This document shows positions 2,274 through 8,656 of a DNA stretch of 35,662 nt, in pieces; within the stretch, counting starts at the first letter, position 1, and the number at the start of each line of letters is the position of its first letter. The translations under genes and the position numbers were made by a program. The notes under the pieces were generated by a model, which was not told where the DNA came from, ran no database searches, and saw nothing but the letters and a program-made list of their open reading frames with translations. The DNA comes from a virus (taxonomy: Duplodnaviria; Heunggongvirae; Uroviricota; Caudoviricetes). The DNA lies in the IMG/VR virus record IMGVR_UViG_2654587570_000002, positions 1 through 35,662 of that record. One strand, 5' to 3'.

Positions 2274-2628
2274 TTAGCACGTAGGAAATCATTCAATACT
2301 CGCACTATCGGAAGTTCACCAGCCAGTCGTAGCACGTCCTTGCAAACGACGTGCCTACAATTTCAATCACCTCTCACCATCAGTTCTATCAATAATAATT
2401 AAACAGCGCCTAGACAAAATAAATAACAACAAGTCAACAACCTCGACAGGATGCCGATGGGATGATGAAGAGATAAGAAAGAATAACCAGTAAAGCCCTA
2501 AAACGTCAGCGTTCAGACGCGTTTTTTACTTAACCGGTAACAAATACGTTGTATCATAGCAGAATAAAATGATTGTTCTAAATCAGATTAACTCCTCACT
2601 TTTGTACAATGTCGCTTACAGGTATACC

Positions 2629-4518
2629 ATGAAATCCGAGACGCTAACTGTCCAACAACTTTTTCAAGACCGCCGACAATACTGTGTTCCATTCTATCAA
2701 CGTGCCTATGTATGGACTCAGCAAGACCAATGGTCAGCTCTACTGGAGGATATCCTAGAGAAAGCACAATCCCGGCTCTCGGGTACAAAACCAACTCCCC
2801 ATTTCCTTGGTGCGGTTGTACTGGAACCTCAATCAAAAAAAGGATTATTAGGTGTAGATTCCATACATATTATTGATGGTCAGCAACGATTGACCACTCT
2901 TCAATATGTTCTGGCATCCATCCGATTAGCATTACGTGCTACGGATCTTTCCAGCTTAGAGGCTCTCATTTCGCCTTGCCTGAAAAACTCAAACGAAGAC
3001 ACAATGCGAAATAAAGAAGTAGAACGCTTCAAACTGTGGCCAACTTTTCGGGATCAAACTCATTTTATTCAAAGTTTTAATGTTGAAAATATTGACGATC
3101 TCCGGGACGTATTCTCTGATAGTTTCACGCAGCATGGTACGTTGCGTAAGCGTTTTAATCACCCGCCATCACTAGAAGCATTATGTTTTTTTACTAAAGC
3201 CTTTATAAAATGGATTAAAATAGAAAACCACTCACCACAAGAAAATGCTGTAGCTCTAATTGAGGCTGTCTTAACAGATCTGAAACTGGTAAGCATATTT
3301 CTCGAAGCTGAAGATGATGCCCAAATAATTTTTGAAACATTAAATGGGCGAGGGGCGGAACTTCATGCTACGGATCTTATTCGCAACTATATCTTTATGT
3401 GCGCAGAGCATGAAAATATTAATGCTATTGAATTATATGAAAATGAGTGGAAGAGCTTTGAAGATAAATACTGGTCGGAAAAACAACGCCGTGGACGTAT
3501 TAATAAACCACGCATGGAGTGGCTAGTACATGCGACATTGCAATCAGAAAGGCAGCGTGAAATTGATCTGTCTCGCCTTTACAATGAGTATCGTGATTAT
3601 GTAAGTAAGGACTTGTCTTCACAACGAGCAGATCTGCAAGTAAAGCGCCTCAAACAATATGCATTACAATATAAAGAATTGGTTGATGGTTTTGGCACAA
3701 CCCCCATCTCACACTTTGGATATCGCATCGCAGACTATGATGTGACGACACTTTATCCGCTTGCTTTGTTCATTTCGATAGCTAACATCGCTGATGATGA
3801 GAAAGCAGCCATGTATAATGATCTTGTCTCCTACGTAGTACGAAGAGCCGTATGTGGCCTGACGCCAAAGAATTACAACAATGTATTTATGAATGTATTG
3901 CGGCACTTGGCTAAAACGGAAATTTCCAGTGTTGAGTTACGTAATATCCTCAATAACTTAAATGGCGAAGCCTCACGTTGGCCTGGTGACTCAGAATTTC
4001 TCAACGCTTGCATCAATGCTCCACTTTATCCTGGCAGGCTCGACGCACCGAAAATGCGCTCAATGTTAACGGAACTTGAAAGAGAACTTTGTCGCCAAGT
4101 GAAGACCGAAAAGCCTGATGTTCCAAATCTTTCTAATCTCGATATCGATCATCTTATGCCCCAAAGTTGGTATTCCTGTTGGCCTCTCGAAAATGGTCGT
4201 ATGGTGACAAATTCAGATGCTACGGTATTGAACCAAATTGTTCTGTCTGGAACCGATCTTACCCCTGAACAGCTACTGGTAAGGAAACGGCAACAAGCGA
4301 TAGCTACTTTGGGAAATCTAACTTTGCTTAACCTTAGCGTAAACCGTTCTGTTCAGAATGCTGTATTTCTGAAAAAACGTGATGCTCTCATCGTCCACAC
4401 CAATCTACGACTGAACATTCCACTTATAGTTAAGGATAAATGGGATGAGGATGAAATCCTGGAGCGGGGTAAAAATTTGGGGGAAATTGCATTGAAAGTA
4501 TGGCCAAAACACGATTAA
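2629..4518 (+). CDS. GmrSD-like type IV restriction-type nuclease (N-terminal DUF262/ParB-like domain, C-terminal DUF1524 His-Me finger domain)
   Basis: N-terminal FYQRAYVW and IIDGQQRLTTLQ (DGQQR motif); C-terminal LDIDHLMPQSW (DxDH motif); roughly 40% GC against higher-GC tail genes; ORF track opens at 2569 but the ATG at 2629 (MKSETLTVQQLF) is the more typical family start. Confidence 0.8.
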   Translation: MKSETLTVQQLFQDRRQYCVPFYQRAYVWTQQDQWSALLEDILEKAQSRLSGTKPTPHFLGAVVLEPQSKKGLLGVDSIHIIDGQQRLTTLQYVLASIRLALRATDLSSLEALISPCLKNSNEDTMRNKEVERFKLWPTFRDQTHFIQSFNVENIDDLRDVFSDSFTQHGTLRKRFNHPPSLEALCFFTKAFIKWIKIENHSPQENAVALIEAVLTDLKLVSIFLEAEDDAQIIFETLNGRGAELHATDLIRNYIFMCAEHENINAIELYENEWKSFEDKYWSEKQRRGRINKPRMEWLVHATLQSERQREIDLSRLYNEYRDYVSKDLSSQRADLQVKRLKQYALQYKELVDGFGTTPISHFGYRIADYDVTTLYPLALFISIANIADDEKAAMYNDLVSYVVRRAVCGLTPKNYNNVFMNVLRHLAKTEISSVELRNILNNLNGEASRWPGDSEFLNACINAPLYPGRLDAPKMRSMLTELERELCRQVKTEKPDVPNLSNLDIDHLMPQSWYSCWPLENGRMVTNSDATVLNQIVLSGTDLTPEQLLVRKRQQAIATLGNLTLLNLSVNRSVQNAVFLKKRDALIVHTNLRLNIPLIVKDKWDEDEILERGKNLGEIALKVWPKHD

Positions 4519-4540
4519 TGCAATTAATAAAATGATTATA

Positions 4541-4564
4541 GCGGCCTTACCTTAGTAAGGCCGC
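4541..4564 (+). terminator. stem-loop just 3' of the GmrSD-like gene
   Basis: gcggcctta-ccttag-taaggccgc, a perfect 9-bp stem 23 bp after the stop; weak T-tract. Confidence 0.4.
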
Positions 4565-4613
4565 TACTCACTATTAAATACTTTAATTTGCATCAAGAAC
4601 AGCAATGTCAGCC

Positions 4614-4742
4614 CTAGGTCTCGGACTTTGTACCGCTTATCTTGTTTTCAAAAATCAGCTCGCATCCTGCACAGTTCAGCGCATTACGTTGTAGATCTGT
4701 GTTCTGGTCATTTGTTGATACGCGTACATAGCCAATAAGCAT
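4614..4742 (-). pseudogene. Gin/Pin/Hin-family serine invertase gene, N-terminal 41-codon remnant
   Basis: Minus-strand translation from ATG at 4742: MLIGYVRVSTNDQNTDLQRNALNCAGCELIFENKISGTKSET-stop; matches the invertase N-terminus (catalytic-Ser VRVST motif) as recalled, then similarity ends abruptly. Confidence 0.8.
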
Positions 4743-4768
4743 GGTAGATCCCCCTGACAAAAGCAGGA

Positions 4769-5182
4769 ATGATGCCATTTGCTCGTTATTTCTGCATTTT
4801 CATAAACGTTGGTTTGGGAGAAGCAGCAAAACGAGGGGTGGGGACAGGGGAAAATCAGATACCGGACATGACCTCTTTTGCCAGTGGTGATGGATGGATG
4901 AAATTACCCAACGGGAAAATCCTGCAATATGGTCGAGGTGAGGCTATGCCGAAATTATCGACGCAAACAATGAGGATTACATTTCCTATCCCTTTCCCTA
5001 AAAAAGCGGATATCGCCATTCTTACCCATTCTGGCGATGGCGGTGCGCCTTTTGGTGCAGGGCGTGGATTCGTTATGTCCGTAGAAGGCCCAACATTAAC
5101 CGGCTTTAATTCTGCTTACAGAACTGCATCAACCAGCGACAAGGTGTCAATGACTTACAGTTGGTGGGCTGTTGGTGAATAA
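4769..5182 (+). CDS. alternative tail-fibre C-terminal variable domain (silent cassette in present orientation)
   Basis: Shares VGLGE at the crossover site with the constant part and would be in frame with it after inversion; no independent start expected (the ATG at 4769 lies outside the crossover site). Confidence 0.6.
   Translation: MMPFARYFCIFINVGLGEAAKRGVGTGENQIPDMTSFASGDGWMKLPNGKILQYGRGEAMPKLSTQTMRITFPIPFPKKADIAILTHSGDGGAPFGAGRGFVMSVEGPTLTGFNSAYRTASTSDKVSMTYSWWAVGE
4797..4822. repeat. hix/gix-like crossover site (left end of invertible segment)
   Basis: TTTTCATAAACG-TT-GGTTTGGGAGAA; the last 14 bp are identical to the reverse complement of the site at 6717-6742. Confidence 0.65.
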
Positions 5183-5193
5183 TTTTATTCAGG

Positions 5194-5646
5194 ATGATTT
5201 ATATGAACGAATATGTTTATAGCGCAAGGCATAATGCTTTTTTCCCTGTGGATATGATTGATAAATATAAATCAGAGGGATGGGATTTATCAGATGCTAA
5301 GGAGGTGAGTCAAAATATTATCAGTGAATTTATGGCTGAACCGCCACAAGGAAAAATCCGTATTGCCGGAGGTGATGGGCTGCCCGCGTGGGCGGATATT
5401 CCTGCCCCTACGCATGAAGAACTTACTGAAATTACTGAATCAGAAAGACAGCTACTAATTAATCAGGCCAACGATTATATGAACAGTAAACAATGGCCTG
5501 GTAAAGCCGCTATTGGTCGTCTGAAAGGTGACGAACTGGCGCAATATAATTTGTGGCTGGATTATCTGGACGCACTGGAGCTGGTTGATACCTCCAGTGC
5601 TCCAGATATTGAATGGCCTACGCCTCCGGCAGTTCAGGCCAGATGA
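5194..5646 (+). CDS. tail fibre assembly protein (Tfa/U'-like), silent cassette
   Basis: C-terminal ...LVDTSSAPDIEWPTPP, the characteristic Tfa ending. Confidence 0.75.
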   Translation: MIYMNEYVYSARHNAFFPVDMIDKYKSEGWDLSDAKEVSQNIISEFMAEPPQGKIRIAGGDGLPAWADIPAPTHEELTEITESERQLLINQANDYMNSKQWPGKAAIGRLKGDELAQYNLWLDYLDALELVDTSSAPDIEWPTPPAVQAR

Positions 5647-6220
5647 CATCCGGCGCGGTGCTGGTATCTGTTGCCGTCACCGCGTCAGTGTAATCCAGCA
5701 CGGCGTTAAGTCGGGTGTTTTCTGCCTGCGTCAGCTTCCTCCCGGCCTGCAATTTCAGTTGAATCAGACTAATGGAAACCATTGCAGCATCAATCAGCGA
5801 CTGCCGCTGTGTTTCTGCCATGTCTACTGCTGCTCTATGCTGTGCCTCGGTATCCGTCACCCATTTCTCACCATCCCATTTATCGTATGGCGTTAACGGG
5901 GCGATAGTGGTTGTCTTTTCAGGGTAATCACCCGGAGCTGTGATTTCTTTTGATTCTCCTGTTTCGGTGCTATAGACGATTTCACCGCGATGGTCTGGCA
6001 CATATTCCCATGAGTTAAAATCTGCAGAACGGCAAATTGCATAACCAGCTTTATATGAGCCAGGAGCATCTAAACAGGAACATGCCGGGATACCGACACC
6101 CACAGCAAGATATTCGGTTGATGTGGAAATATATTCTCGTGTTTCACCATCATAATTATAAACGGTAATATCTCCCGCCTTTGTGGCGATGAGTTCCTTA
6201 TTTAATATAGCTTTATCCAT
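5618..6220 (-). CDS. tail fibre assembly protein (Tfa/U-like)
   Basis: Strong resemblance to lambda Tfa as recalled (EYVPDHRGEIVYSTETGE..., ...DTSTAPDVIWPELP). Confidence 0.8.
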   Translation of the reverse strand: MDKAILNKELIATKAGDITVYNYDGETREYISTSTEYLAVGVGIPACSCLDAPGSYKAGYAICRSADFNSWEYVPDHRGEIVYSTETGESKEITAPGDYPEKTTTIAPLTPYDKWDGEKWVTDTEAQHRAAVDMAETQRQSLIDAAMVSISLIQLKLQAGRKLTQAENTRLNAVLDYTDAVTATDTSTAPDVIWPELPEA

Positions 6221-6696
6221 CAGGCAGCCCTCACGATATAATTAAAGGCAATGTTACGGGGTCGATTTTCGTTTGCAGTTGGAACAATTCTTGAAGCATC
6301 AAGGCCAATCACTTTTGGGTAAACACCGCCCTCGGACCTTTCTGTCACCATACTTCTGACTAAGGAGAAATAACTATTGTTCGTTGAGGGGTTCAAAGGC
6401 ACCACTGCCCCCTTAAACGAGCCTACTGATTCCCATATTGAATAATTTTCGGTGTTTACAGTCTTGAACTCACCATAGATATTACGTATGGCATCGCCCT
6501 GAGCGGATAATATTGTTCTCCCCGCATCCGCACTACGCCCATCATCCCAGCCACGAATAAATTCACCGCGTAAATCAGGCAATTTATTTGTCGGGTAAGC
6601 CTTTGCCAGTTCCGGGTATTCTTCAGCAGAAAAAGCCGCACCATTGCATTTCAGCCAGCCTGTCGGCGGAGTGGCGGAAGGCCACGGAACAGGCAC
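6220..6696 (-). CDS. tail-fibre C-terminal variable domain with phage tail-collar motif; currently in the -1 frame relative to the constant N-terminal part
   Basis: [35 protein letters not shown]...LPDLRGEF fits the tail-collar domain pattern; track start is a GTG; frame differs from ORF 6651-7019. Confidence 0.7.
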
Positions 6697-7019
6697 ACCG
6701 CAGGTAATGCAGAGCCTTCTCCCAAACCAAGGTTTTCGAGAGCCGTTTTCACCGTGCCATCCGATTTGATATCACCAAACGGATTCTTGCGGCTTAACAG
6801 CAGAGCACGAAGCGCGGTAAGCAACTGGTCGTTTCGCCCCTTCTCCAGGCTGGCACCGGATGCCTCCACCACGCTGCAAAGCTCCTCCTGCAACATATCA
6901 AAGTAGTCATCATCCAGATCGGTGGCAGGTGTGCCGGTCTGGGGGTTACCACGGGTAAAACCGTTCTTACCCGCGCCGAACTTATCCTTCTGCGCGGTTT
7001 TCGTGTCTATACGATGCAT
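6651..7019 (-). CDS. tail fibre, constant N-terminal part (terminates 20 codons past the crossover site in this orientation)
   Basis: [46 protein letters not shown]... resembles Mu S / e14 Stf N-termini as recalled; ...LENLGLGE spans the crossover site. Confidence 0.7.
6717..6742. repeat. hix/gix-like crossover site (right end, inside the tail-fibre gene)
   Basis: + strand TTCTCCCAAACC-AA-GGTTTTCGAGAG; compare hixL TTCTTGAAAACC-AA-GGTTTTTGATAA as recalled. Confidence 0.65.
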
Positions 7020-7022
7020 GGA

Positions 7023-7607
7023 TTACTCCGGATATTTAAAAATTACGTAGGTATGCGACGGGCAGAGTTTGTTAAGCACACACTCGACAACGGTGTCGCC
7101 CCAGATACGCAGCGCGGAATCACAGGGATCGCCACATGTCATCCAGGTGGTGTTGGTGGTAGCTGGCATGTTGACCTGCCAGTAATACCGCCATTCCGGC
7201 GCATTCACCGCGTCAGTACAGGCCAATGAGCAGGTGAAGGTGCTTTTGTCGTATCGCGTGATGGTGGCAGCTGGTCTGCCCAGGGCAGCAAGCTGGGCAA
7301 GATAAAAATCCTCGTTGATGCCGCCCGCCAGGTTAACCTTCGCATCCAGCCGTTGCTGACGCTGGCGAAGGGTCTGTGTCCCTGTAGGAATACATTCATC
7401 CGGCAGGCCGCACAGACGCTCCCAGCGATTTATCAGTTCGGTGGTGGTGCGCGGATCCAGCTCCCGCATCAGGGCATCCGCACGCTGATGAACGCGGGTT
7501 AATGACGGTGCCGCACCGGCAATCGCCGGATCGCTGGCTGACCACGCCGGACCGGGCGGCAACAGTGCTGACAACAGACGGATGTAATCATCGTTTGTCA
7601 CGTCCAT
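7023..7607 (-). CDS. Mu gp48 / YmfQ-like tail protein (DUF2313-like)
   Basis: Position between baseplate J-like gene and tail fibre; sequence family recalled from e14 ymfQ. Confidence 0.65.
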
Positions 7608-8656
7608 GAAATCGCCCCCAGAACCGCCAGCTCATTTTTCGCAATGGTGATATTGTCCGCCGGTGCAAGCAACTGATGGCTGTATTCCCCGTTCGCACCG
7701 GAAATCGCTTCACTGATACGTGACACCTTCAGTTCTCCCTGCGGATAACCATCACGCAGCAGGAACGAACGCAACTCCGCGGTGATGGCAGCCCGTATTT
7801 CCGGTGTGTCCGGCGTCACACGGATATGAAAATCCACCGTATGTGCCACCGGCCTGAACACATACAAATCAGAGCCTGCCACCGGGGCCAGTGGCCCGAT
7901 ATGTTGTCTTGCCGCCGTTTCCGTTGATTCTTCCGGAATGGGATTAATCAGGTCACTGCTGGCAATCATCACACCGACAGTCCCCGTTCCCATCCAGTGT
8001 CGGTATGTCCATGCGCGGGTAATGCCAGGCACTTCTTTAGCCCAGACGACATAGTCCCCGTCAGCCCCGCCCTGCGGCGTCCAGTAATACCGCTCAATGA
8101 CGCGGGCGCGCCACGTTTCCAGCTCTTCAGTATCAAATCCGCCTGTCAGGGTGTCAGCCACACCGGAAGACGGCAGACCATTCACCGGCGTGACCAGGAT
8201 TAATGCCGTACCGTCGTCAGCGTTACCGACCGCACCTGCACTTGAGCAGGCGATCGGCACGCGCAGGACACCACCGGAGCTGATTGCATCGTCAGTTGTC
8301 GTGTACTGCACCAGGTCATCGCGCTGAATAACACTCCCGGCAGTCACCTTCAGGCCATCGCTGACACCTTCCCAGCGCATATACCCGCTGGCAACCGTGG
8401 CACCCTTGCGCGGACACCGTTTCATCGCAGCATGTCGCGCCAGCCAGGACTCATCGCACAGGTCAGGCAGCATATTCATTGCCAGATAATCGATGTAACC
8501 GTAGACCGTATGCAGCGCCGCCGCATACACCTTTGCCCGCACGTCTTCATCCATGCGCCGGAGCGTGTCGCTGACGTCCAGCCTGGCGAATAAATCGTTA
8601 CGGAGCATACTGATATTTTCTGCCAGCGTCGGGCGCTGAAATTCACTGTCCGCCAT
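7598..8656 (-). CDS. baseplate J-like protein (Mu gp47-like)
   Basis: Size 352 aa, synteny and sequence character of the baseplate J family. Confidence 0.75.

Follow-up and report, generated by a model that had tools for sequence, protein, structure and literature searches.

A Probable Orphaned e14-Type Invertible Tail-Fibre Segment in an SfV/e14-Like Prophage

Gene Organization of the Tail-Fibre Locus

The window, the whole stretch of 35,662 nucleotides that was analysed, belongs to a prophage that resembles SfV and e14 and combines a head of the HK97 type with a Mu-type tail. In its tail-fibre locus, a YmfQ/Mu gp48-like baseplate gene (7023-7607, minus strand; Pfam Phage_Mu_Gp48), annotated as ymfQ in relatives, lies directly upstream of a fibre gene that starts at 7019. 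The constant N-terminal part of this fibre gene (6729-7019, minus strand) is of the StfP/YcfK type as judged from the open reading frame and its translation, comprises residues 1 to about 97 plus a crossover site, and sits outside the invertible segment. Together with its neighbours (the ymfQ/Mu gp48-like gene and a baseplate J gene), the constant part shows 96% identity to e14 and SfV-type prophages, and the same value of DNA identity (96%) links the constant part to K-12 ycfK and SfV-type phages up to the site.

The invertible P-type segment (4810-6729; 1920 bp between the site centres), homologues of which are inverted between sibling genomes, holds two convergent cassettes. The C-terminal fibre cassette that is at present fused to the constant part (6220-6728, minus strand; ORF 6220-6716) contains a Pfam Collar domain, and its stop is overlapped by the start of a TfaE-type tail-fibre assembly chaperone gene (5618-6220, minus strand; Pfam Caudo_TAP, E = 7e-31), which is annotated as tfaE in relatives. 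The alternative cassette consists of a fibre C-terminal domain assigned by Pfam to Gp53-like_C (4811-5182, plus strand), in frame with the GLGE of the site, and a second tail-fibre assembly chaperone (5203-5646, plus strand) identified by a gene call and a Caudo_TAP match (E = 4e-30). An earlier reading of the DNA, made from the sequence only, had proposed two convergent cassettes, each with a fibre C-terminal domain and a Tfa chaperone, and this arrangement is borne out by the Collar, Gp53-like_C, and two Caudo_TAP assignments. The same reading had placed the right crossover site within the fibre gene such that inversion swaps the C-terminal domain; the site indeed corresponds to codons 93-101 (ALENLGLGE) of the gene starting at 7019, and the flipped translation is in frame. 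Among phages, the cassettes form a mosaic whose boundaries fall at the sites. In the present orientation, the Gp53-like domain also lies behind a StfE-type leader in a pin-proximal ORF (4769/4772-5182, plus strand; 136/137 aa). A scan for promoter-like sequences across 4450-7100 gave no more matches than shuffled sequences and none at the expected places, and no RNA family was recovered when the whole window was searched with Rfam.

A 1-nt deletion at ~6700/6701 breaks the reading frame of the fibre that is now in the expressed orientation. The deletion is evident in comparison with SFE8, 2017.20.01CC, and the intact 266-aa orthologue of PRO_A-1443, and translation from 7019 stops at 6651 after 122 aa. 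A one-off assembly error is ruled out because a second, independent assembly, with four differences in 13.3 kb, carries the same deletion. An exact protein look-up placed the frameshift allele in two NCBI assemblies, both with the same segment orientation, and the allele appears to be rare, as the exact 35-mer across the frameshift had no match in the genome, viral, or metagenome contig collections. The in silico flipped isoform, on the other hand, encodes an intact 220-aa fibre composed of the constant part and the Gp53-like tip. A flip would thus restore a complete fibre, so that in this strain the switch would take fibre production from an off to an on state rather than exchange one tip for another, which bears on whether the prophage makes infectious particles. 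The frameshift of the currently expressed fibre was not mentioned in the sequence-only reading.

Crossover Sites

The cassettes are flanked by two 26-bp crossover sites, one of the pixR type (4797-4822, minus strand) and one of the pixL type (6717-6742, plus strand), each of which agrees at 26 of 26 positions with both its published counterpart (PMC3241671, Table 3) and the K-12 e14 site. The plus strand at 4797-4822 reads TTTTCATAAACG-TT-GGTTTGGGAGAA (minus strand, TTCTCCCAAACC-AA-CGTTTATGAAAA), and the plus strand at 6717-6742 reads TTCTCCCAAACC-AA-GGTTTTCGAGAG. Compared in the same sense, the two sites are identical at 21 of 26 positions, 15 of which form an uninterrupted run (CTTCTCCCAAACCAA), and an inverted-repeat search recovered them as arms of 20 nt (4804-4823 and 6716-6735) with 95% complementarity. 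The 2-bp core is AA in both sites in the same sense (AA at 6729-6730, and TT on the plus strand at 4809-4810), and an identical core in both sites allows the staggered ends to religate after rotation.

When the whole window (35.6 kb) was scanned with the Din-family consensus (TTCNNNNAAACCNANGTTTNNGA, two mismatches or fewer), these two sites were the only matches, whereas the chance expectation is 0.08 and none of 100 dinucleotide-preserving shuffles reached the observed count. The right site was matched on the other strand too because it is partly palindromic. A candidate third crossover site, a weak inverted repeat between 4184-4204 and 6722-6742 with 76% complementarity, was rejected as it fails the consensus scan. 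A multiple-inversion system with more than two sites, such as Min of p15B or the shufflons, was likewise rejected since the window has two crossover sites only.

The positions that the sequence-only reading had given for two inverted 26-bp sites prove exact, the inverted repeat is real, and the hixL sequence that it gave agrees with the published one. It was correct that the sites share identical positions, although its figure of 14 bp is superseded by the counts above. The alignment to known crossover sites that it had suggested also replaces its description of the sites as hix- or gix-like with a sharper one: they are letter for letter the pixL and pixR sites of e14 (26/26), and exact in K-12 MG1655. 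Finally, it had classed the segment as of Mu G or e14 P type. The first label falls since there is no GA core, and the second stands, as the AA core and the pix sites indicate a P-type rather than a Mu G-type segment.

Truncation of the Invertase Gene

Next to the pixR-type site lies a remnant of the pin invertase gene (4614-4742, minus strand), which runs for 42 codons to a stop and matches only the N-terminal part of the Pfam Resolvase domain. The full invertase gene, with a Resolvase catalytic domain and a C-terminal HTH, is absent from this position, where only codons 1-42 are found, and tblastn searches with PinE and Gin across the window matched only residues 1-44, at the stub, and no other invertase. 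The first 96 nt of the remnant are identical to K-12 pin, and homology to pinE ends at ~4617-4624, with unrelated DNA beyond. The earlier reading had not mentioned that only a 42-codon stub is left of the cognate invertase gene. Farther along is a type IV restriction gene of the GmrSD family (DUF262/DUF1524; 2569-4518, plus strand; Pfam GmrSD_N and GmrSD_C), and a G+C-rich, terminator-like hairpin (4538-4567), identified by an inverted-repeat search and a terminator-like match, is located between this gene and the pin remnant. As read from the sequence, the arrival of the GmrSD gene, by insertion or replacement, replaced the 3' three-quarters of pin. The identical pin/GmrSD junction is found in SFE8, FG92-1, PT62, and SF-173.

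The part of pin that is retained includes a stretch homologous to a recombinational (Fis) enhancer (4653-4724, minus strand; nt 19-90 of pin). This stretch is identical to K-12 pinE at 72 of 72 positions and to cin at 57 of 72, where the position of the cin enhancer (nt 19-90 of cin) was taken from the P1 GenBank annotation, and its distance to the pixR centre is 85-157 bp. In hin, the enhancer spans 65 bp and is separated from hix by ~100 bp (PMC3798978). Given the homology to cin and hin, and a position that fits hin, 4653-4724 may be regarded as a putative recombinational enhancer.

The region is very probably an e14-type P segment, that is, a two-state inversion switch of the Din family (Hin/Gin/Cin/Pin), which has been orphaned, has partly decayed, and can be flipped only by an unlinked invertase. 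In the proposed mechanism, a Din invertase dimer would bind each 26-bp pix site, and the Fis-bound enhancer at the 5' end of pin would bring both sites together. Both sites would then be cut at the central AA/TT, and a 180-degree rotation would invert the 1.9-kb segment, such that the constant 101-residue fibre N-terminus would be joined either to the Collar-type tip, with TfaE, or to the Gp53-like tip, with its own chaperone. This copy retains the two pix sites and the enhancer-homologous DNA in intact form, whereas pin and the expressed fibre are broken. As pin is cut to 42 codons, flipping of this copy would require a recombinase gene at another place in the host, a point that was absent from the earlier reading.

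Segment Orientation in Related Prophages

Both orientations are seen in close relatives of the window, whose own sequence has one orientation only, in two assemblies. The E. coli isolates MEI1-1023 and MEI2B-1023, which have an intact pinE, are equal in genome length, and their sole difference across an 8-kb region is an exact inversion whose breakpoints fall within TTGGTTTGGGAGAAG. An exact inversion between sibling isolates with breakpoints in the repeats indicates that the sites work in relatives. More broadly, a contiguous fibre gene of the constant part and the Gp53-like domain occurs in 70 E. coli genomes, while others have the constant part fused to Collar. The inverted isoform on which the earlier reading turned thus exists in relatives, with breakpoints inside the repeats.

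Inversion is also evident where pin is truncated. APEC O1 and UTI89 both carry the same truncated pin, and their 1927-bp segments are exact reverse complements with zero differences, breakpoints in the same 15-bp repeat, and one difference in the flanks. A flipped junction built in silico from SF-173 was found in 23 records at 99.9-100% identity and in a 24th at 95.7%, compared to 79 records for the native junction. The occurrence of truncated-pin prophages in both orientations, as in UTI89 and APEC O1, suggests that an unlinked invertase probably flips orphan P segments of this kind. Experiments have shown inversion of the e14 P segment by PinQ and PinR and of the Salmonella H segment by Fin, and several cross-acting Pin-type invertases are common in E. 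coli genomes (PMC12529663); PinQ is reported to be 38% identical to PinE. A sizeable E. coli prophage lineage has lost pin to the GmrSD gene at one identical junction and still shows clean flips, which is natural evidence, comparable to the PinQ/PinR and Fin experiments, that orphan segments are flipped by invertases from other prophages.

The differences in orientation among truncated-pin prophages may instead have arisen by RecA-dependent recombination, either across the 15-20-bp repeat or between co-resident prophages. Breakpoints in the perfect 15-bp repeat do not by themselves distinguish between the two mechanisms, and the cassettes are, as noted above, mosaic among phages and bounded by the sites. 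However, a repeat of 15-20 bp is very short for RecA recombination, and here it is exactly a pix site pair. The flipped state is also frequent (24 records versus 79), and the segment and flanks of UTI89 and APEC O1 are otherwise identical, which argues against import from another prophage. We therefore consider RecA-dependent recombination very unlikely to account for the two orientations.

For the copy in the window, flipping by an invertase in trans is what we infer from these relatives and its intact sites, and the frameshift and the truncation of pin point to decay rather than to maintained function. It is possible, albeit on balance doubtful, that with the destruction of pin the segment no longer inverts, that the pix sites have simply not yet decayed, and that no functional fibre is made from the locus. 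Such a locked state would be in line with the 42-codon pin, the lack of a second invertase within the window, and the frameshifted fibre, and the single orientation of both assemblies with the frameshift allele fits it equally well. In addition, the Gp53-like cassette adjoins the pin stub in all six records that combine a truncated pin with window-type cassettes (five genomes, as strain c1-17 was deposited twice), and a K-12 pinE mutant was reported to be locked. Action in trans may be weak at native expression or may rely on DNA in cis that such a deletion removes. On the other hand, the identical truncation junction occurs in both orientations with zero differences within the segment, both sites and the enhancer-homologous stretch of this copy are still letter-perfect, and potential sources of an invertase in trans are common in E. 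coli genomes as noted above. An orphaned segment that may still be flipped by an unlinked invertase thus remains the preferred explanation.

A different role for the orphan segment would be as a phase-variable module retained by the host, where the pin-proximal ORF acts like K-12 StfE2, a protein that blocks the adsorption of other phages, and masks receptors against them, and an unlinked, possibly phage-induced Pin-type invertase sets the orientation. The orientation in the window places the Gp53-like domain behind a StfE-type leader, which is the architecture of StfE2, and StfE2 blocks T2 adsorption with PinQ acting in trans (PMC12529663). Moreover, the neighbouring GmrSD gene is a defence gene, and the phage's own fibre would be dispensable here because it is frameshifted. 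In contrast, the window ORF is only ~32% identical to K-12 StfE2 (46/144), there is no promoter signal above chance upstream of it, and its exact 137-aa sequence is absent from a collection of 15 billion proteins, although gene callers use the second ATG (136 aa). Since the remaining structural genes of the prophage all look intact, it is also not obviously a domesticated remnant, and we regard this role as unlikely. If true, the widespread truncated-pin lineage, including the ST95-type UTI89 and APEC O1, would represent natural control of a defence gene by a recombinase in trans.

Comparison With Known Inversion Systems

The preferred explanation, an orphaned e14-type P segment, involves a system that is already known, and this copy is ordinary in kind apart from being orphaned. 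The P segment of e14 with PinE (stfP-tfaP-tfaE-stfE-pinE) was described by Plasterk and van de Putte (1985; as cited in PMC4272514 and PMC3241671), its pix sites have been known since 1985, and RefSeq routinely annotates pinE, tfaE, and ymfQ. In annotations, the locus ought to appear as an invertible segment, with the invertase marked as a pseudogene and the fibre as frameshifted, rather than as several unrelated small tail genes.

The e14 element of K-12 is the closest counterpart. Besides both crossover sites (26/26) and the constant part with ymfQ (96%), the similarity extends to the tfaE cassette (about 88%), to the gene order, and to a type IV restriction gene following pin (mcrA in K-12). 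Unlike in K-12, pin is truncated after codon 42 and the segment measures 1920 bp instead of 1797 bp. In one cassette, both the Gp53-like tip and its chaperone differ from those of K-12, and the Collar tip diverges in its middle part (6270-6536). The window also represents a near-complete SfV-like phage, albeit with a frameshifted expressed fibre, whereas e14 is a 15-kb remnant. The inversion of e14 by PinQ and PinR that yields StfE2 (PMC12529663) resembles the situation proposed here in that a P segment is flipped by an invertase from another prophage and in that the window contains an ORF with the StfE leader and a Gp53-like domain. However, pinE is intact in K-12, and the Gp53-like domains of the window and of K-12 are only distant relatives.

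The Mu G (Gin) and P1 C (Cin) systems share the general layout: the segment encloses convergent Sv-U and Sv'-U' cassettes and leaves the constant Sc part outside, and the invertase gene, with the enhancer in its 5' end, adjoins one site. The baseplate genes of the window are of the Mu type. In both Mu and P1, the constant part is much longer, while the fibre here is short (220-266 aa) and the invertase is absent. The gix core of Mu is GA compared to AA here, and about 18 of 26 positions are common with gixL/R. The Salmonella H segment with Hin is similar in its recombinase family, 26-bp site layout, and AA core, and the sites agree with hixL at 20 of 26 positions. Fin of Fels-2 is an earlier example, also from Salmonella, in which a prophage invertase flips a segment to which it is not linked. 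Hin, in contrast, flips a promoter for flagellin genes, whereas the segment in the window carries fibre coding cassettes.

Crossover sites and organization of the segment

The stretch from 4810 to 6729 is best described as an orphaned P segment of the e14 type. A repeat search identified inverted arms of 20 nt at 4804–4823 and 6716–6735 (95% complementary, 1892 nt between them), which confirms the two 26-bp sites proposed by a sequence-only reading at 4797–4822 (left; + strand, TTTTCATAAACG-TT-GGTTTGGGAGAA) and 6717–6742 (right; + strand, TTCTCCCAAACC-AA-GGTTTTCGAGAG). That reading was right that the sites share identical bases, although the extent is larger than the 14 bp claimed, as 21 of the 26 positions agree in the same sense, including a perfect 15-nt run. 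These sites were the only matches to the Din-family consensus in the 35.6-kb window, with 0.08 expected by chance and the observed count reached in 0 of 100 shuffles.

The sites had been called hix/gix-like and the segment assigned to the Mu G / e14 P type, of which only the P-type assignment stands. The right site is identical to the published pixL (TTCTCCCAAACC AA GGTTTTCGAGAG) and the left site to pixR (TTCTCCCAAACC AA CGTTTATGAAAA) at 26/26 positions (Table 3, PMC3241671), and each string occurs exactly once in the e14 region of K-12 MG1655. The hixL sequence, given correctly in the earlier reading (Table 3, PMC3241671), agrees with the right site at 20/26 positions. In the Mu G segment, the gix sites have a GA core and ~18/26 positions in common with the window sites, and the switch is therefore P-type, not G-type.

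The tail-fibre gene starts at 7019 on the minus strand, preceded on that strand by a Mu gp48/YmfQ-like gene (7023–7607) and a baseplate J gene (7598–8656). Residues 1–101 of the fibre close with ...ALENLGLGE, whose codons constitute the right site. Within the segment, a Collar-domain tip (6220–6716, minus strand) is now joined to the constant part and is followed by a TfaE-type chaperone (5618–6220, minus strand). The convergent cassette consists of a Gp53-like_C tip (4811–5182, plus strand), whose reading frame is that of the GLGE in the left site, and another chaperone, Caudo_TAP (5203–5646, plus strand). Flipping the segment in silico yields an uninterrupted 220-aa fibre. The two convergent tip-and-chaperone cassettes and the exchange of the C-terminal tip by inversion at a site within the fibre gene were thus correctly anticipated. 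At 6218–6222 (TGATG, minus strand), tfaE starts within the stop of the fibre gene, which suggests that the two are translationally coupled, and the frameshift upstream in the fibre gene would break this coupling.

In the present orientation, an StfE-type leader (MMPFARYFCIFINVGLGE) lies in front of the Gp53-like domain. K-12 StfE2 has the same leader and Gp53-like architecture but is only ~32% identical to the window ORF. StfE2 has been reported to block T2 adsorption (PMC12529663), and by analogy a defence role for the window ORF is a possibility, although one of low probability.

Loss of the invertase gene

The invertase gene pin beside the left site is reduced to a stub that begins with an ATG at 4742 on the minus strand and encodes MLIGYVRVSTNDQNTDLQRNALNCAGCELIFENKISGTKSET before a stop; Pfam recognizes the Resolvase domain over its first third only. 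Homology to full-length pinE ends at ~4617–4624, beyond which lie a hairpin (4538–4567) and a convergent gene for a 649-aa GmrSD-type type IV restriction protein (2569–4518, plus strand). The window encodes no further invertase. The same pin/GmrSD junction occurs in the window and in SFE8, FG92-1, PT62, and SF-173, and it is therefore one old event, now widely spread.

The position just past pin is a variable slot, often with defence cargo (window 2569–4518; in relatives, L010 7347–8180, L004 1–1778, and L013 6647–7691). Its occupant is GmrSD in the window and mcrA in K-12 e14; the MEI strains carry an AAA ATPase and an HNH nuclease there, PRO_A-1443 a KAP NTPase, and phage Mu the DNA-modification gene mom. 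In the window, the arrival of cargo in this slot cost the prophage its invertase.

The Cin enhancer is annotated at nt 19–90 of cin (P1 GenBank record), and the 65-bp hin enhancer lies ~100 bp from hixL (PMC3798978). In the pin stub, the stretch homologous to the cin enhancer (4724–4653) is kept whole at 85–157 bp from the pixR centre and is identical to K-12 pinE at 72/72 positions. Both sites and the presumed enhancer, whose function and placement follow from homology only, thus survive, and the enzyme alone is gone. Most features that define the Din family are found: the sites match in sequence and core, the fibre gene is split, the cassettes converge, and the segment inverts in relatives. 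The adjacent invertase gene is present only as the stub. The segment works like the e14 P segment and is a copy of it.

Inversion in related prophages

Inversion was judged from natural variation among genomes rather than from reads. E. coli MEI1-1023 and MEI2B-1023, which have equal genome lengths, one locus-tag series, and intact pinE in these prophages, differ over an 8-kb region solely by an exact inversion. The inverted interval (2750–4597) is a perfect reverse complement, and its breakpoint ambiguity zone is a 15-bp repeat, TTGGTTTGGGAGAAG / CTTCTCCCAAACCAA, identical in the window. The constant part is fused to the gp53-like tip in 70 of 5,426 complete genomes and to the Collar tip in others. 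Sequencing and PCR (PMC4272514) and qPCR (PMC12529663) have demonstrated that the e14 segment undergoes phase variation.

Flipping also occurs among prophages with truncated pin. The flipped pin-side junction, built in silico from SF-173, where pin is truncated in the same way, was found at ≥80% coverage in 24 records (e.g., APEC O1, IHE3034, and PMV-1), 23 of them at 99.9–100% identity across all 800 nt and the other, PA45B, at 95.7%; the native junction was found in 79 (e.g., UTI89, S88, and NU14). In APEC O1 and UTI89, the 1927 bp between pix centres match as reverse complements at every position, the flanks carry 1 difference in 2473 nt to one side and none to the other, and the pin stub and GmrSD junction are alike. 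A clean flip among genomes sharing the truncated pin means that the inversion postdates the truncation. It is most economically explained by a Din invertase whose gene lies elsewhere, and such action is on record (PinQ and PinR on e14, and Fin on the Salmonella H segment; PMC12529663). RecA recombination across 15–20 bp is a weak alternative to an unlinked invertase. The window allele itself may or may not flip: it is on record in one orientation only; where truncated pin occurs with window-type cassettes, the gp53-like cassette lies beside the stub in all six records (five genomes); and a K-12 pinE mutant was reported to be locked (PMC12529663).

Further decay is seen in the truncated-pin lineage. 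APEC O1 (L014 4692–6582) has a frameshift in its GmrSD gene, PT62 (L008 6833–7626) has only a fragment of the expressed fibre, and FG92-1 (L006 6656–6902) has lost the entire tail module, with an stfP fragment left adjoining ymfL.

Frameshift in the expressed fibre

Compared with SFE8, 2017.20.01CC, and PRO_A-1443, the window fibre gene lacks one base after nt 319 (window ~6700/6701), 16 nt inside the segment, and translation therefore stops at 6651 after 122 residues. With the base put back, the gene encodes 266 aa, collinear with the intact orthologue in PRO_A-1443. The deletion is real, because the identical 122-aa product is recorded in a second assembly, GCA_002075125.1, whose contig shows 4 differences from the window over 13.3 kb and shares its orientation and pin stub. 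The fibre of the expressed orientation is broken, and no full-length fibre is possible unless a flip restores one; the switch would accordingly be off/on rather than an alternation of host range. The kind of system is already known, and its orphaned and frameshifted state is ordinary prophage decay. The sequence-only reading had noticed neither the frameshift nor the stub.

The protein cluster of the 122-aa product includes, from public draft genomes, many ‘partial’ N-terminal fibre fragments of 78–103 residues, one of them on 294 contigs. These would fit assemblies that break at the invertible segment, as expected if cultures hold both orientations.

Prophage context and mosaicism

The window is the complete NCBI contig JHTB01000045.1 (GCA_001266275.1) and carries an SfV/e14-like prophage. 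Over >22 kb, this prophage is ~97% identical to others in E. coli, among them that of SFE8 at ssrA, and its head and tail gene lengths are all equal to the SFE8 counterparts. No tmRNA or tRNA genes were found in the window. The left end of the contig (1–1826) is foreign to the SfV-like prophage that SFE8-type genomes carry and matches, at 99.5% identity, another E. coli prophage context, annotated ‘terminase small subunit | hypothetical protein’, which suggests either two abutting phage-derived regions or a rearrangement.

Mosaic boundaries fall at the crossover sites. Homology to SfV, SfI, SfII, and SfIV ends exactly at 6716, and P2-like phages (KC618326, pro483, and a Salmonella phage) have the whole segment and the invertase (4621–6741) in common with the window but do not share its flanks. 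Judging from these homologies, the switch would move as a module among unrelated tail types. The middle of the Collar tip (6270–6536) has no blastn match in SFE8, K-12, the MEI strains, or SF-173 and is present in ~10 E. coli genomes (e.g., PRO_A-1443). It looks like a hypervariable receptor-binding patch that may be swapped across genera; the exact 158-aa ORF of the Collar tip occurs on 170 contigs, Salmonella among them.
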